From the NCBI GenBank assembly GCA_052327205.1, contig CM126228.1:30318001-30382000 (forward strand): a stretch of DNA of 64,000 nt, written 5' to 3'. The notes under the pieces are model-generated. The model was not told the DNA's origin, made no database searches, and was given only the letters and a program-made list of their open reading frames with translations. The translations under genes were made by a program, and so were the position numbers. Below are positions 23,438 to 64,000 of this stretch, piece by piece. Within the stretch, counting starts at the first letter, position 1. Each line of letters begins with the position of its first letter. This DNA is from Somniosus microcephalus. Taxonomy: Eukaryota.

Positions 23438-25231
23438 GGGCTGAATTTTGCCGTCGCTCAGAGGACAGGTTCAGAGGCGGGTCCGCTGTCAAAATAGTAG
23501 TGATTGACAGCGGATAATCCGCTCTGAACCCACCTCATTGTTAATTTCCTAAGTGTTGGCTCTGCCTGCAGTTTGCAGACCTGGCACTAAGCAGCGGGTC
23601 AGACAATTGAGATACTTAAGAAGCTGCTTAAAGGTATTTAAGCAGCATTTTACCAGGTCCTAATGATTTTTCCATGTTATTTATGAGGTTCCCGGTGCTC
23701 GGGGATCACGTCAGTTAAGTGTGTCGGGTTCTCAATGACTCTGCATTGCTGTGAATGGTTGACAGCTGCAAAACTGGTATAAAAGCAACCATTTCACAGC
23801 TGTTCACTTTCCAATCTTAGAGGCTGGAGCCTTCAGGATTTGGAATACACTTTTCAGCTTTATAGAGGTTTGAAGGGTTTGGAGCAAACTCTCTATCCAG
23901 TGTCACCTCCTTGGAGCAACCTCTCTCACCATTGACAGATCGCTTCTGTCATCTCAACTTCAGCTGCCATCTATTCCATCAGCATTGGTGCCCTTGAAAA
24001 AATCTCACCTTGGTCCTCAGAATCCCACCACGATCAGCCCCAGCACCAGCATCACCAGGCACACCAGCATCACCAGGCACACCAGCAGCACCAACCTTCT
24101 CCACAATCACCTGCTGCTGCACAGGACACAGAGCATCAGCACCTGAGCACATTGCTGCCCAGGAGGCCAGGGATGGCCTTAGCATGGCCAGATTTACTTC
24201 AGTTGACACTGTGCACCCTGGCTGCCATATGATGCGCCAGGTTGGCACCAGGCCAGACCAACACCATCAAGCATCCCTACAATGCCCAAACCATTCCTTT
24301 CACACTCATCACCATTGTGGGGTGGGGGGTGGGGGTGGTACCATTATGTCTCACCATTCATTGCAACTCACTAAGTCACTTCCAAAGGTGCACACAGATC
24401 TGTCCAAGAAGGCAAAGTGTTGAAAATAAAGATTTCAATGTTTGACAGCACATTAACAGAAACTTTACATGAACATTGGCAAAAACACCCAGCTGCCTAC
24501 CCTTGTGTGTTGTTAGTTGGTATGATTGAACTAGGCTGAGGGTGACTGTGAGGGGTGGCTAGTGAGATGGGGAAGTGATAATGTAGATAGAGAGGGATGA
24601 GTGGAGGTGCAAGGTAAGTTGGTGTGAATAAGGATGTGCAGGAGTAGGGTAGGGAAGGCAGAGTGATGAGTGGCACAGCAGGGTGAGGTTGAGTGTGGCT
24701 TTGCAGTAACGTTTTGAAATCTACTGAGATCATTGAAAGATTTGCACCAGTGCAGCCTGGTCCTCCTGATGACATCCCTGCTTGTGTCCTCCTGTGCAAT
24801 GTGCAACCAGGCTGCATTGGTCTCCTGGGGAGGTCTCTTCCACCCACTGGAAGGGAAGAGAACCTCCCTGCATGTTGTGACTCCCTCCATAAGCATATGG
24901 AGGGAGTAATGGGACAGACTGGGTGCAGCAGTGCACCTTTGTGCAGTGCTTGTCAGTGTTTGCAGCACCTCAATGCTGCAGAACACTGACAGCACAACTG
25001 TCAAAATGATTGTGGACATGGTCCCTTTAAGGAAACCAGTTGATGATGTGTTATCAAATGATGTCATCAGACCTGCTTCCTATTATTTGGCTGGGAACCT
25101 TTCAGGGTGGCTTTAACAAGCCCCATCAATGGAAAATCTTGTTGGAGGCCGGGTTCGAGAAAGATGCGGGATCCCCACACACCATGGACGTCGCCCGCCC
25201 CGGACCCACCGAGATTGGAAAAATCCAGCCC
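23438..25231. mobile_element. Decayed Harbinger derivative with a Myb-like remnant on the minus strand (about 24720-24960)
   Basis: Termini gggctgaatttt / aaaatccagccc; peptide VLFPSSGWKRP...AWLHIAQ...WCKSFNDL matches Myb exon 1. Confidence 0.75.
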
Positions 25232-25548
25232 ACTGTGTGGGACTGATGGGCACCCCAACCTCCCAGAAACAGCGAGTGTAGCAGGCATGGGAGGAAGTGG
25301 CAAAAGAATGAAAGTAGTGTCCAGAACCTGCAGGAGTTGGCAAGGCATCAGAGAAGTCAGCCAAACAGGCTCCACAGACAGTATTCAAGGAGGAGGTTGG
25401 TGATCAGCTGGTTGGTTGGTTTTCTTCCTTCTCTTCTCTTTCATACCTTTAAGTTGGTAAGTCCTATTGAATAGTGGTGTGATATTATCATATATATCCG
25501 GGCAGGGTCTTCATAACTAATAATAAGAAATTTAATTAATTATATAGA

Positions 25549-26502
25549 ATGGAGCAGGTGATGTGTTACTGTTGCGAGATGTGGGAGCCAGTGAACCCCA
25601 TTGAGGCTAACGGTGATTACATCTGCGACAAGTGTTTGCTGCTAGAGGAACTCAAGTTCCATGTTATGGAGCTTGAGACCGAGCTTCGGACACTGCGACA
25701 CATCAGGGAGGGGGAGAAGTTCCTGGACTCTATGTTTCAGGAGATGGTCACACCTATGAAGTTAATTACTGCAGATGTAGTCCGTGGTCAGGGACAGGAC
25801 GGTGTGACTACGAGTGAGGAAGGTACAGGGATCCAGGATGTAGTGTTGAAGGAGACGCAGCCCTTGCTCTTGTCCAGCAGGATCGAGGTTCTTACTCCCT
25901 GTGAGGGCGGGAGCGGGGACTGCAGGGAGGATGAGCAACCTGGCCACAGCACCGTGGTACAGGGGGCCATTCAAGTGGAGGGAGTAAAAAGAAATGTTGT
26001 AGTGGTAGGGGATAGTATCATTAGGGGGATAGATAGGGTTCTCTGCAGTCAAGAGCGGGAGTCCCGAAGGCTGTGTTGCCTGCCTGGTGCCAGGGTTAAG
26101 GACATCTCTTCTGGGCTGGAAAGAAACTTGCAGTGGGAGGGGGAGGATCCAGTTGTCGTGGTCCATGTTGGTACAAACGACGTAGATAGGACAAGGAAGA
26201 CGGTTCTGTTAAAGGAGTATGAGCAGCTAGGGGTCAAATTAAAAAACAGAACCTCAAGGGTAATAATCTCTGGGTTATTACCTGAGCCACGAGCGAATTT
26301 GGCTAGGATAAATAAAATTAAAGAGTTAAATGCGTGGCTCAAAGACTGGTGTGGGAGAAATGGGTTTTGCTTCTTGGGACACTGGCACCAGTACTGGGAC
26401 AGGAGGGAGCTGTTCTGTTGGGATGGACTCCACTTGGCCAGTGCTGGGACTAGAGTCCTGGCGAATCATATAACTAGGGCTGTAGAGAGGGCTTTAAACT
26501 AA
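25549..26502 (+). CDS. CR1 ORF1p: Zn-finger/leucine zipper plus SGNH esterase
   Basis: CxxC..CxxC, heptad LEELKFHVMELETEL, VGDSIIR / HVGTND / DGLH blocks. Confidence 0.93.
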   Translation: MEQVMCYCCEMWEPVNPIEANGDYICDKCLLLEELKFHVMELETELRTLRHIREGEKFLDSMFQEMVTPMKLITADVVRGQGQDGVTTSEEGTGIQDVVLKETQPLLLSSRIEVLTPCEGGSGDCREDEQPGHSTVVQGAIQVEGVKRNVVVVGDSIIRGIDRVLCSQERESRRLCCLPGARVKDISSGLERNLQWEGEDPVVVVHVGTNDVDRTRKTVLLKEYEQLGVKLKNRTSRVIISGLLPEPRANLARINKIKELNAWLKDWCGRNGFCFLGHWHQYWDRRELFCWDGLHLASAGTRVLANHITRAVERALN

Positions 26503-26540
26503 TTAGTGGGGGGGAGGTTTCTAGAGAGCAAATCATAGAA

Positions 26541-29492
26541 ATGACAACAGAGAAGGTCATAGACTTAGGTAGCAGTGGGGGAATTAAAAAACAGAATGTG
26601 TCAGGAAGGGACAGAAGGTATGGAGTAAAAAGTAAAGTACTAAAAAGGGAAAAAACAGGAACTAAGTGTTACAAAACATATTTGAAAGTTCTTTATCTGA
26701 ATGCACGTAGCATTCGTAACAAAATGAATGAGTTAACGGCACAAATAATGACATATGGGTATGATCTTGTGGCCATTACAGAAACATGGCTGCAGGGTGA
26801 CCATGACTGGGAATTAAACATACCAGGTTATTTAACAATCAGGAAGGACAGGCAGGAAGGGAGAGGAGGTGGGGTGGCTATGTTAATAAAGGAAGGAATC
26901 ACTATAATACAGAGAAATGATATTGGGTCAAAGGAGCACGATAGTGAAACAGTTTGGGTGGAGGTAAGGAATAATAAGGGGAAAAAAACACTAGTGGGTG
27001 TAGTCTATAGGCCTCCGAACAGTTGCAACTCTGTTGGACGGAGTATTAATCAGGAAATAGTTGAGGCTTGTAATAAGGGAACAGCTATAATTATGGGGGA
27101 TTTTAATTATCATATTAACTGGACAAATCAAATTGGGCAGAGCAGCCTTGAGGAAGAGTTCATTGAGTGTATTAGGGATGGGTTTCTTGAGCAGTATGTA
27201 ACTGAACCGACCAGGGGGCAAGCAACCTTAGATTTGGTCCTGTGTAATGAGACAGGATTAATTAAAAATGTCCTAGTAAAGGATCCCCTTGGAATGAGTG
27301 ACCATAACATGGTTGAGTTCCATATTCAATTAGAGGGTGAGAAGGTTGGATCTCAAACAAGCGTGCTGAGCTTGAATAAAGGAGACTATGAAGGTATGAG
27401 AGCGGGATTAATGAGAGTGGACTGGGAAAATAGATTAAAGGGTAAGACGGTACATGACCAGTGGTGTACATTTAAGGAGTTATTTTACAACTTCCAAAAA
27501 AAATATATTCCACTGAGGAAAAAAGGGTGTAAAAGAAAAGATAGCCATCCGTGGCTAAGTAAAGTAATTAAGGATAGTATCCGACTAAAAACAAGGGCAT
27601 ATAAGGTAGCCAAATCTAGTGGGAGGATGGAAGATTGGGAAGTCTTTAAAAGACAGCAAAAAATAACAAAAAGATTGATTAAGAAAGGGAAGATAGATTA
27701 TGAAAGTAAATTAGCAAAAAATATAAAAACAGACAGTAAAAGTTTCTATAGTTATATAAAAAGAAAAAGGGTGGCTAAAGTAAATGTTGGTCCCTTAGAG
27801 GATGAGACCGGGAAATTAATGGTGGGAAACATGGAGATGGCAAAAACACTGAACAATTATTTTGTATCAGTCTTTACAGTAGAGGACACTAAGAATATCC
27901 CAACACTGGACAAACAGGGGGCTCTAGGGGGGGAGGAACTAAATACAATTAAAATCACTAAGGAAGTGGTACTTGGTAAAATAATGGGACTCAAGGCGGA
28001 TAAATCCCCTGGACCTGATGGCTTGCATCCCAGGGTCTTGAGGGAAGTAGCGGTAGGGATTGTGGATGCATTGGTAATAATTTTCCAAAACTCACTGGAC
28101 TCAGCAAAGGTCCCGGCAGATTGGAAAACTGCTAATGTAACACCATTATTTAAAAAGGGTAGTAGGCAGAAGGCTGGAAACTATAGACCTGTTAGCCTAA
28201 CATCTGTGGTTGGTAAAATGTTAGAGTCCATTATTAAGGAGACAGTAACGGGACATTTGGATAAACACAATTTAATAGGGCAAACTCAGCATGGTTTCAT
28301 GAAGGGGAAGTCATGTTTAACAAATTTGCTTGAGTTTTTTGAGGAAGTAACATACAGGGTGGATAAAGGGGAACCAGTGGACGTAGTGTATTTAGACTTC
28401 CAAAAGGCATTTGACAAGGTGCCACACAAAAGATTATTGCTCAAGATAAAAAATCACGGGATTGGGGGTAATATTCTGGCATGGGTGGAGGATTGGCTCT
28501 CTAACAGAAAGCAGAGAGTTGGGATAAATGGTTCGTTCTCAGATTGGCAACCAGTAACTAGTGGTGTTCCGCAGGGGTCAGTGCTGGGTCCCCAACTCTT
28601 TACAATCTATATTAACGATTTGGAGGAGGGGACCGAGTGTAACATATCAAAGTTTGCAGATGATACAAAGATGGGACGGAAAGTAGTGAGTGAGGAGGAC
28701 ATAAAAAACCTGCAAAGGGACATAGACAGGCTAAGTAAGTGGGCAAAGATTTGGCAGATGGAATACAATACTGGAAAGTGTGAAGTTATGCACTTTGGCA
28801 GGAAAAATCATAGAGCAAGTTATTATCTTAATGGCAAGAAACTGGAAAGTACTGTAGTACAAAGGGATCTGGGGGTCCTGGTGCACGAAACTCAAAAAGT
28901 TAGTATGCAGGTGCAGCAAGTGATCAAGAAGGCCAATGGAATGTTGGCTTTTATTGCTAGGGGGTTGGAATATAAAAACAGGGAGGTATTGCTGCAGTTG
29001 TACAAGGTATTGGTGAGGCCGCACCTGGAATACTGCATACAGTTTTGGTGTCCATACTTAAGAAAAGACATACTTGCTCTCGAGTCAGTACAAAGAAGGT
29101 TCACTCGGTTAATCCCGGGGATGAGGGGGTGGTCATATGAGGAGAGGTTGAGTAGATTGGGACTCTACTCATTGGAGTTCAGAAGAATGAGAGGCGATCT
29201 TATTGAAACATATAAGATTGTGAAGGGGCTTGATCGGGTGGATGCGGTGAGGATGTTCCCAATGATGGGTGAAACTAGAACTAGTGGGCATAACCTTAAA
29301 ATAAGGGGCTGCTCATTCAAAACTGAGATGAGGAGAAACTTCTTCACTCAGAGGGTGGTAGGTTTGTGGAATTTGCTGCCCCAGAAAGCTGTGGAAGCTA
29401 CATCATTAAATAAATTTAAAACAGAAATAGATAGTTTCCTAGAAGTAAAGGGAATAAAGGGTTACGGGGAGCGGGCAGGAAATTGGACATGA
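26541..29492 (+). CDS. CR1 ORF2p: APE endonuclease plus reverse transcriptase (frame open from 26478)
   Basis: NARS, ITETW, GDFN, SDH endonuclease motifs; QHGF, DFQKAFDKV, GVPQGSVLGP, FADD RT motifs. Confidence 0.97.
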   Translation: MTTEKVIDLGSSGGIKKQNVSGRDRRYGVKSKVLKREKTGTKCYKTYLKVLYLNARSIRNKMNELTAQIMTYGYDLVAITETWLQGDHDWELNIPGYLTIRKDRQEGRGGGVAMLIKEGITIIQRNDIGSKEHDSETVWVEVRNNKGKKTLVGVVYRPPNSCNSVGRSINQEIVEACNKGTAIIMGDFNYHINWTNQIGQSSLEEEFIECIRDGFLEQYVTEPTRGQATLDLVLCNETGLIKNVLVKDPLGMSDHNMVEFHIQLEGEKVGSQTSVLSLNKGDYEGMRAGLMRVDWENRLKGKTVHDQWCTFKELFYNFQKKYIPLRKKGCKRKDSHPWLSKVIKDSIRLKTRAYKVAKSSGRMEDWEVFKRQQKITKRLIKKGKIDYESKLAKNIKTDSKSFYSYIKRKRVAKVNVGPLEDETGKLMVGNMEMAKTLNNYFVSVFTVEDTKNIPTLDKQGALGGEELNTIKITKEVVLGKIMGLKADKSPGPDGLHPRVLREVAVGIVDALVIIFQNSLDSAKVPADWKTANVTPLFKKGSRQKAGNYRPVSLTSVVGKMLESIIKETVTGHLDKHNLIGQTQHGFMKGKSCLTNLLEFFEEVTYRVDKGEPVDVVYLDFQKAFDKVPHKRLLLKIKNHGIGGNILAWVEDWLSNRKQRVGINGSFSDWQPVTSGVPQGSVLGPQLFTIYINDLEEGTECNISKFADDTKMGRKVVSEEDIKNLQRDIDRLSKWAKIWQMEYNTGKCEVMHFGRKNHRASYYLNGKKLESTVVQRDLGVLVHETQKVSMQVQQVIKKANGMLAFIARGLEYKNREVLLQLYKVLVRPHLEYCIQFWCPYLRKDILALESVQRRFTRLIPGMRGWSYEERLSRLGLYSLEFRRMRGDLIETYKIVKGLDRVDAVRMFPMMGETRTSGHNLKIRGCSFKTEMRRNFFTQRVVGLWNLLPQKAVEATSLNKFKTEIDSFLEVKGIKGYGERAGNWT

Positions 29493-30306
29493 GTCTGGGT
29501 TCGGAATGGTCATGGCCCTGTGGGTAGTGGAGCGCGCCCAGGGGCCGTGTAGCCTTGTTCTGCTCCTACTGTGTTCTAATTCTGTTAGATTTCAGGAGAT
29601 GGTTTTATCCCTGTTCCTGGCTGGGGTGGAGATCGCCTTTACAGAAGGTAAGTACTGTAGAAAATATAGGGACAGGGTGATCTCCTGGAAGAATTTCGAT
29701 CGCCTAGATGGGTCGGAGAGGAATTTCCCAGATTTTTTTCTCCCAAATTGGCCATTGGGTCTTTATCTGGTTTTTCGCCTCTCCCGGGAGATCACATGGG
29801 TTCGGGTGGATGCAGAGTGATAGAAGATTTGAGGCTAGGATCAGATCAGCCATGATCTTATTGAATGGTGGAGCAGGCTCGAGGGGCCGATTGGCCTACT
29901 CCTGCTCCTATTTCTTATGTTCTTATGTTCTTATGTTCTTAAAAGATGTCAACTCTTAATAAATTTGCTAAACTAAATCGACTTACTGTTGTGAATGAGA
30001 GCGCCTACCCCAAGTACATATGCAGGAATTTTTTTTCTCTGCTAACAGTTTATGCTGGAAGTTACTAAATAGTAAGAGGAGGTTTCCTGGATTCAGAGTT
30101 ACCATGGCAAACAATGCTTTGTTTCAATGGCGACACTTAAGATGTATACTACAGTTACAATTAGGACGTGCCTATGGATTCACCCAACTACTGTACTATG
30201 CATCCGCAATATGTTGCATGCCTCCAAAGCTGTGCAGTTGCTTGATATTGTTCGTGCACTATATACTTTCAGTACCTCTCCACTATTCTTCTGCTGGAAA
30301 GACAAG

Positions 30307-62490: not shown

Positions 62491-63044
62491 ATAAATACAG
62501 AATTGGTGAGTCGCTTGCCCACCTGAGAAACATTTTTTCAAGTAGATGAGGAATGGGCAGAATGACTGCCTAGTTACTGCCGCAACAAGCAACTCCCCGC
62601 AAAGGATACCCATAAGCCTGTGATTTTCTATGAATGCCCCCAAGCGGGAGCTAGTAAAAGGTGGGAGTTCCCAGTGGCTGCCCAATTTTCTGCTGTCATT
62701 ACCAGCGTATTTAAATGAGGTGGTAGTGGTGCGCTGCTGTCATGTGTTTCATTTTCTATCATCGCCGCTTTGCTTACACCCAACACCTATCACGTCCTCA
62801 CTCTCCGTCTTCCTCCTGAGCTCCTTTGGCCAACCTGTGCACTAGTCACCCTGTGCACTCCCCTCTGGCTCATTATCAAATACCCGACAGGTGGATGCTT
62901 CTTAGCTGGTGCTTGGGAGGGAAGGAGTGGTTTCCAGGGCACGTGATTAAGAAGCAGAGGAAATGATTCCCCGATGCCTACGGGTGTGTACGCGCTGTGT
63001 ACATCGGAAATGCCGGTTTCAGGCATGCAAAGTGCACTTGGGGG

Positions 63045-64000
63045 AGTGTTTGCTAGTGCTGTGGGGGAGGGTTTAAACTAAAATGGCAGGAGGCTGGGAA
63101 CCTGAGCAGGGAGACAAAGGAAAGGGAAACAAGGATAGAAGCAAAAGACAGGAAGGAGAAAAACAAAGGTGGCAATCAGGGAAATCAAGGGTTTAAAACA
63201 AACATGGCCACAGTAAATAATAATTCTAAAAGGTCTAAGAGCGTTAAAAAAACAAGCCTGAAGGCTTTGTGTCTTAATGCAAGGAGCATTCGTAATAAGC
63301 TGGATGAATTTGCAGCACAAATAGAGGTAAATGAATATGATATGATTGGAATAACGGAAACATGGCTCCAGGGGGACCAAGGCTGGGAACTCAACATCCA
63401 GGGGTATTCAATATTCAGGAAAGATAGGCAAAAAGGAAAGGGAGGTGGGGTAGCATTGCTGGTTAAAGAGGGGATTAACACAATTGTAAGGAAAGATATT
63501 GGCTCTGATGATGTGGAATCTGTATGGGTAGAACTAAGAAATACCAAAGGGCAGAAAACATTAATGGGAGTGGTGTATAGACCCCCAAACAGTAATGCAG
63601 AGGTTGGGGATGGCATTAAAAGGGAAATTAGAGAAGCGTGCAATAAGGGCACAGCAGTCATCATGGGTGACTTTAATCTACATATAGATTGAGCTAACCA
63701 AATTAGTAACAATACTGTGGAGGAGGAATTCCTGGAGTGTATACGGGATGGTTTCCTGGACCAATATGTTGAGGAACCAACTAGGGATCAGGCCATCTTA
63801 GACTGGGTATTATGCAATGAGAAAGGATTAATTAGCAATCTTGTTGTGCGAGGCCCCTTGGGTCGGAGCGATCATAATATGATAGAATTCTTCATTGAGA
63901 TGGAGAATGAAGTAGTTGACTCAGAGACTAAGGTCCTAAATTTAAATAAAGGGAACTATGAGGGTATGAGATGCGAGTTGGGTAGGATTGATTGGGGAAT
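63045..64000 (+). mobile_element. CR1 LINE: ORF1 end plus ORF2 endonuclease, runs off the window
   Basis: ...FASAVGEGLN* ends at 63081; ORF2 with NARS/ITETW/GDFN; TGA at 63690 replaces Trp. Confidence 0.92.

Follow-up and report, generated by a model that had tools for sequence, protein, structure and literature searches.

A stretch of 64,000 nucleotides (nt) of Somniosus microcephalus DNA (GCA_052327205.1, contig CM126228.1, positions 30,318,001 to 30,382,000; hereafter, the window) contains a young copy of a CR1 long interspersed nuclear element (LINE; 25355–29940, on the forward strand, as are all features given below), in which the two open reading frames (ORFs) meet at a slippery heptamer followed directly by a stop codon. 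Sequence comparisons make it likely that a programmed −1 ribosomal frameshift at this conserved U_UUA_AAC and stop gives a predicted 1314-aa ORF1-ORF2 (esterase-endonuclease-reverse transcriptase) fusion, as a first-pass annotation of the window had proposed. Between CR1 lineages we observed the heptamer, its register, the adjacent stop, a fixed −1 phase, a stop-free linker, an ATG that is not conserved, and a G-tract locked in position. As judged by these comparisons, the slip-site junction is a real, deeply conserved feature with what appears to be a structure-free 3′ signal.

ORF1 of the window copy (25549–26502; 317 aa) has a Cys-rich N-terminus, an SGNH/GDSL esterase domain, and a C-terminus that reads R-A-L-N-stop; residues 153–302 match PF13472 (E 4.6e-10) and the protein matches the ORF1 esterase of PDB 4c1b (E 7.5e-29). 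Its final bases (26491–26502) are GCT TTA AAC TAA, exactly as the first-pass annotation had read them, so that T TTA AAC (26493–26499) stands in the X_XXY_YYZ register with ORF1 and the TAA stop (26500–26502) lies directly 3′ of it. The annotation was also right that ORF2, in the −1 frame relative to ORF1, is open through the heptamer to the first in-frame ATG of this family (26541–26543): the frame runs uninterrupted over 1004 codons (26478–29492) and encodes an apurinic/apyrimidinic endonuclease (APE; ~26700–27305; PF03372/PF14529) and a reverse transcriptase (RT; ~28158–28805; PF00078). The fusion length of about 1314 aa that it had predicted agrees with our count (317 + 997 = 1314 aa). By its ORF1 relatives, the nearest named ones coming from rays, sharks, and a chimaera, and by its 3′ tail, the element is classified as a CR1-group LINE of the esterase-ORF1 type.

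Taken singly, the site in the window copy is not beyond chance. The probability of its codon choice in one element, P(GCT|Ala) × P(TTA|Leu) × P(AAC|Asn) under the element's own codon usage, is 0.035, TTA and AAC are not rare codons in this CR1 (0.24 and 0.39), and the two ORFs hold six further in-register canonical heptamers, which speaks against reading much into a single site. Given this probability and the other heptamers, the case rests on comparison, and conservation between lineages is beyond chance.

Junctions were gathered by ORF1 protein or DNA similarity from the element's own genome (190 junctions, after removal of 21 re-fetched places) and from metagenome contigs with amniote-type CR1 (46 loci, 21 of which reach the ORF1 end; three of these are cut before the site, leaving 18 complete junctions). 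TTTAAAC followed by a stop was present in 179/190 own-genome junctions (heptamer only: 2; other: 9) and in 13/18 metagenome junctions (heptamer only: 2; other: 3). As a guard against selection bias, four arbitrary 200-kb blocks (800 kb) were searched blind with ORF1 queries from which the last 14 residues had been removed; 10 of the 11 ORF1 matches, new lineages included, showed the exact heptamer together with the stop and the G-run, and the eleventh was a 14-residue match running into unrelated DNA. For codon statistics, we used 22 natural copies, one per lineage, picked after the junctions had been viewed, with decayed or cut metagenome copies omitted (L036, L037, L041, L051, L056, L060, and L074). 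Leu was encoded by TTA and Asn by AAC in all 22, and the preceding codon always ended in T under six different amino acids (Ala, Gly, Asp, Ser, Cys, and Thr). In the same copies, the third bases of 69 ORF1 columns agreed at a median of 0.55; another invariant Asn was split 16/6 between its codons, and another invariant Leu used five codons. The heptamer is thus kept at synonymous sites beyond coding need (22/22 at three positions vs. a median of 0.55). The stop that follows it was TAA in 13 representatives, TAG in eight, and TGA in one. At the protein level, 54 of 83 ORF1 homologues end in LN, the named ones belonging to rays, sharks, bony fish, frogs, turtles, and a lizard, with the teleost and frog junctions known from protein alone. 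Across the 23 proteins left after de-duplication, the residue before this Leu was never E, K, Q, M, or W, whose codons are unable to end in T, vs. a background of 0.19 (P 0.008); prior to de-duplication, Glu occurred there in 2/77 proteins.

The −1 frame is equally regular. A purine-rich linker, stop-free in the −1 frame, connects the slip site to the endonuclease (26499–26675), and the 176 nt between stop and endonuclease in the window copy is one of ten lineage lengths (86, 125, 128, 146, 149, 173, 176, 179, 182, and 254 nt), all of which equal 2 modulo 3. The −1 phase was kept in 154/166 copies and in every lineage. Among 15 representatives with intact frames, no stop occurred in 441 codons of the −1 frame before the first in-frame ATG, vs. 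73 in 852 codons of the other frames, and shuffled sequences never had fewer than 15 stops in the −1 test. Upstream of the heptamer, the −1 frame closes within 1–37 codons (median 5; 22 representatives).

The start codon of ORF2 is not conserved between lineages. Its first in-frame Met may be at any of eleven codons (4, 7, 16, 18, 19, 22, 23, 38, 43, 44, or 52), a close relative lacks the ATG found at 26541, and no Met precedes the endonuclease start in 25/42 copies of one group and 20/56 of another. The first Met of copies without a linker ATG is at codon 67 or 139, past the first conserved endonuclease motif, which in L1 holds an active-site Asn. An ATG-less subfamily with a 125-nt linker is abundant (2984 candidates, of which 40 were scored, at 97–100%). 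Of 374 ORF2 codons, 41 differ synonymously and 33 non-synonymously from those of its sister, a pattern that, read from codons, is mostly purifying selection; the polarized counts for this group are small, with six synonymous and two non-synonymous changes on the ATG-less branch. Its frequent frame break is a variable-length G-run, with no shared lesion. In the 173-nt group, no fixed ORF2 difference set ATG copies apart from GTG copies in 343 codons. The first-pass annotation had suggested scoring synonymous-site conservation of the heptamer, the frame offset, and openness of the −1 frame relative to ATG conservation, and had named freely varying Leu and Asn codons or a random offset as contrary outcomes. 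All three synonymous positions of the heptamer proved fixed in the 22 representatives, TTA and AAC without a single departure, the offset was −1 in every lineage, and the frame was stop-free from the heptamer on with no conserved ATG; at the level of sequence, every one of the suggested comparative checks that was run came out in favor of a programmed −1 frameshift.

Two further observations were made at these junctions. ORF1 and linker types are uncoupled (L078 vs. L120; L107 vs. L120): the 173-nt linker stands behind two ORF1 lineages, and GGLN-type ORF1s occur with both 125- and 173-nt linkers, which suggests recombination near the junction. Separately, ORF1 and ORF2 lie in one frame in several copies (L275–L280, L282, L284–L286, L294, L117, and L157) through an extra base in a G-run just upstream of the heptamer, as in L275 (G000:C6:74486000-74491500), where an unbroken ORF1-ORF2 frame spans 1295 codons; these are probably recurrent homopolymer slips.

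Downstream of the stop lies a G-tract (G7; 26508–26514) that covers nt 11–15 after the heptamer and is a candidate 3′ stimulator. Each of nt 11–15 was G in 20–22 of the 22 representatives, without indels and with third codon positions of the −1 frame included; GGG occupied nt 12–14 in 20/22, and at least four G were present within nt 11–15 in 21/22. A second, short G-tract follows at nt 18–20, and nt 4–10 are variable. The G-run, which the first-pass annotation had suggested as a possible stimulator, is not peculiar to the window copy and is locked in position in all lineages. The same annotation had seen no strong downstream pseudoknot, and folding of the window copy agreed (z = 0.21, −0.19, and −0.59). 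No CCC run was present in the 200 nt after the site in the 11 own-genome lineages folded, and an Rfam scan of 25300–27000 returned one sub-threshold match, located elsewhere. Several other candidates were rejected. A G-quadruplex was predicted in 7/22 representatives (80-nt windows) and not in the window family. A C-rich patch about 650 nt upstream, which probably reflects proline-codon richness, recurred as a G-tract partner in duplex scans, but its register differs between lineages and it ranks 1–24 among windows. In three amniote-type metagenome copies (L031, L042, and L046), a hairpin particular to that lineage (CCAGGC...GCCTGG) lies ~25 nt beyond the stop; it is too distant for a stimulator and absent from the own-genome lineages.

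RNA reads were examined in two runs (X18 and X19) whose species label is the same as that of the best DNA match. The junction was covered 1100–2200-fold, and the entries listed for these runs include neither a splice joint there nor, at a 3% threshold, any indel in the heptamer, and splicing or transcriptional slippage at the site was rejected on these grounds. An additional G in the G-run occurred in ~4–6% of RNA reads and is likewise present in DNA contigs. Because many copies and both strands contribute to these reads, they argue only against splicing and polymerase slippage and do not demonstrate a bicistronic mRNA.

The mechanism that we propose would run as follows. Most ribosomes would stop after ...RALN and release ORF1p, and a minority would slip back one base at the heptamer, tRNA-Leu and tRNA-Asn moving in tandem from UUA AAC to UUU AAA. 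The fusion would then read ...RALN-LISGG... across its junction, with ALNLISGGEVSR as the predicted tryptic junction peptide, and the ribosome would continue through a neutral, basic linker into the endonuclease-RT portion. Stimulation would come from the unpaired G-tract 10 nt downstream, most likely via a bound protein as with the arterivirus C-rich motif, and the pause at the adjacent stop would help the slip. We infer by analogy that a protein-bound G-tract, aided by this stop, is the likeliest stimulator; it is the least supported step of the scheme. Such a fusion would set a low ORF2:ORF1 ratio and could bring RT into ORF1p assemblies through the common N-terminus, in a Gag-Pol-like manner, and in families with an in-frame ATG some ORF2p may be made in free form as well.

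Several results weigh against this mechanism. The junction lacks one of the elements that define classical −1 frameshifting, as local folding of the 22 representatives revealed no pseudoknot or hairpin at the canonical 5–9 nt spacing (z −1.3 to +1.7). All six full-length intact ORF2 copies (the window copy, L207, L242, L257, L258, and L259) have an in-frame ATG before the endonuclease, that of L242 matching an ACG-to-ATG change from an ATG-less family, and the longest ATG-less frame comprises 799 codons. ATG-less lineages contain the near-cognate codons GTG, ACG, and ATA in the linker, and UGGGA, the motif of a termination upstream ribosome-binding site (TURBS) looked for 40–90 nt before the stop, occurs 55 and 81 nt upstream of the stop in the window family; 7/22 representatives have the motif. 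Linker substitutions between subfamilies did not favor third positions of the −1 frame (24/74, P 0.61). The sets of 22 and 15 representatives were chosen after viewing and share common ancestry, which makes their P values nominal. Finally, ORF1-less CR1s are reported to exist (PMC13343379), and ORF2p can therefore work unfused.

Some of these points are what one would expect if ORF2 were instead made separately by termination-reinitiation, in the manner of SART1 or AUG-independently as in L1, with the heptamer, stop, and G-tract acting as a termination or 40S-retention signal. This is an established route for L1 and SART1 (relevant sections of PMC5009743 and PMC2699510), and it would suit the ATG of the window family 39 nt after the stop, the UGGGA motifs at −55 and −81, the GTG, ACG, and ATA codons of ATG-less families, and the lack of an RNA-structure stimulator in local folding. 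However, the −1 codon overlapping the stop is ATG in only 1/22 representatives and UGGGA is found in only seven of them, reinitiation needs neither a fixed −1 phase open from the heptamer nor an exact X_XXY_YYZ register, and in one group of distant relatives (the xKN group, below) the motif stands up to 14 codons before the stop. We therefore regard reinitiation as unlikely.

More improbable still is a frameshift by another route, in which a single P-site tRNA slips, or realigns by −1 while the ribosome waits at the stop, with stimulation owed mainly to the stop and the G-tract exerting its effect inside the mRNA entry channel or by forming a G-quadruplex. In vertebrate-type junctions the stop always follows the heptamer directly, frameshifting in an umbravirus is stated to require a nearby stop (PMC5009743), and the seven 80-nt windows with a predicted quadruplex would fit; however, no quadruplex is predicted in the window family or in 15/22 representatives, xKN relatives lack the adjacent stop, and none of the seven heptamer bases varies, not even the first T, which is needed for tandem slippage alone. 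The least probable reading, and a very improbable one, is that decoding plays no part in the conservation, with Leu-Asn needed by the ORF1 fold and the nucleic-acid motif serving splicing, packaging, or reverse transcription. Leu at −2 does fit the hydrophobic period of the terminal segment (−10, −6, −2), and the ordinary frequency of TTA and AAC in this element (0.24 and 0.39) would be compatible with a purely coding role, but the synonymous sites are fixed, homologous DGLHP-type esterase ORF1s end without LN, the unrelated residues L, G, and K interchange before Asn, no splice joint was seen at the site in the two RNA runs, and the −1 phase would be left unexplained.

To place the junction in a wider context, more distant ORF1 esterases were compared. 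Some end in QGN, AGN, or SGN at an equal distance from the DG-x-HL motif, whereas others have xKN at that position followed by a variable tail of 0–14 unconserved residues. Among 55 de-duplicated proteins, G, K, or L preceded Asn in 21 of 32 cases, vs. a background of 0.17 (nominal P 1.5e-9). U_UUA_AAC, G_GGA_AAC, and A_AAA_AAC encode L, G, and K at this place, respectively. The xGN and xKN ends would thus match G_GGA_AAC and A_AAA_AAC, a correspondence known from protein alone that sets a limit on the frameshift interpretation: DNA of these families was not found in viral_contigs or genome_contigs, and for them the heptamer is an inference. An L2-type ORF1 query had no match in G000 at E 1e-30, and an xKN query returned only LN-type families. 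The motif is absent from DGLHP-type ORF1s, as it is from the solved zebrafish-type structure. A broader proposal, which we hold possible and offer tentatively, is that the whole esterase-ORF1 CR1 lineage, from invertebrate-type (G_GGA_AAC, A_AAA_AAC) to vertebrate (U_UUA_AAC) elements, makes RT as a Gag-Pol-like −1 fusion, the vertebrate slip being switched on by a protein on the unpaired G-tract 10 nt downstream, as the G-rich counterpart of the arterivirus PCBP mechanism. If so, this mechanism would give the host or ORF1p a means of feedback control over the retrotransposon that is commonest in vertebrates.

The window copy belongs to a numerous family. Its own genome (6.45 Gb) contains 1194 candidate copies, and 40/40 scored were ~100% identical over 501 nt; the copies are dispersed on many contigs, with varied (5′-truncated) 5′ ends and 3′ ends of short tandem repeats without poly(A), and in the window the 3′ end is a (TTCTTATG)n tail at 29912–29940. 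Other copies align at >99% from 25355 on, and RNA reads reach further 5′ with a common different sequence; the 5′ untranslated region (UTR) of the window copy is slightly truncated. The upstream flank (25050–25354) is itself repeated, as L015 aligns to 23938–25134 and one contig matches 25189–25355, which suggests that the insertion of the CR1 took place within another repeat. Within the 3′ UTR, a segment of ~260 nt (29571–29829) did not align in the related families L250, L251, L203, and L205, and may be family-specific or inserted. A second, 5′-truncated CR1 of another lineage occupies 63028–64000, with heptamer and stop at 63072–63081 and a mutated G-tract. Elsewhere, a CR1 fragment lies in frame within a 9-bp satellite (CAGTCTCTC-like) and yields an apparent open frame of 9952 codons (L287; G000:C12:72522000-72531900), and two near-identical composites (L288 and L289; G000:C50 and C80) each consist of two opposed CR1 fragments with an internal deletion right after the ORF1 end, as if a rearranged unit had been amplified.

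The mode of LINE ORF2 translation is not settled, and the textbook answer for vertebrates, reinitiation as known for L1, leaves no room for fusions. Most vertebrates have CR1 as their dominant retrotransposon group, according to the abstract of a 2026 survey of CR1-group elements (PMC13343379), whose main text does not contain the word 'frameshift'. CR1 is likewise absent from the part examined of a 2016 frameshifting review (PMC5009743), and our literature search, with the original CR1, PsCR1, L1, and SART1 translation papers outside its scope, found no report of a CR1 frameshift. Our comparisons thus point, with good confidence, to programmed −1 frameshifting in a LINE clade where we found none reported. 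If this is true, the usual annotations of CR1 ORF2 begin at a wrong position, the native junction has to be kept in engineered CR1 vectors, and there is a −1 signal that is ancient and free of structure.

The closest parallel in sequence is the coronavirus ORF1a/1b slippery site, which is U_UUA_AAC. The heptamer is identical, stands in the same register, and leads into a large enzyme ORF in the −1 frame, whereas CR1 is a non-LTR (long terminal repeat) retrotransposon that lacks a pseudoknot 5–9 nt downstream and has its stop directly adjacent. The general X_XXY_YYZ rule for −1 slip sites (as given in PMC3542737) holds for both. In its predicted output, an abundant structural ORF1 product with a minor ORF1-RT fusion, CR1 resembles retroviral and LTR gag-pol frameshifting, but it combines an esterase-type ORF1 with an APE-RT ORF2, no protease was seen that would free the enzyme, and no stem-loop stimulator is present. 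For LINEs, the first-pass annotation had given termination-reinitiation as the usual view of ORF2 synthesis. Among non-LTR elements, a −1 frameshift has been stated before, as Dictyostelium TRE5-A and TRE3-A are said to need one for ORF2 (PMC5911963). Like CR1 they are APE-type, and we compare them by that statement alone, which names no shift site or experiment; they differ in host kingdom and in ORF1. L1 and SART1 share with CR1 a bicistronic LINE RNA and a low ORF2 output. SART1 uses a UAAUG stop-start (PMC2699510, in the part covered) and L1 an unusual AUG-independent initiation (PMC5009743, likewise); these elements rely on a spacer or UAAUG. In CR1 no start is conserved (a stop-start ATG occurs in 1/22), and there are instead a conserved heptamer and an open −1 frame. 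[quoted passage not shown] Both have a short, unstructured, low-complexity motif from nt 11, where GGGGG-NN-GGG begins in CR1; the CR1 motif is G-rich and that of PRRSV C-rich, and the resemblance is one of position only.

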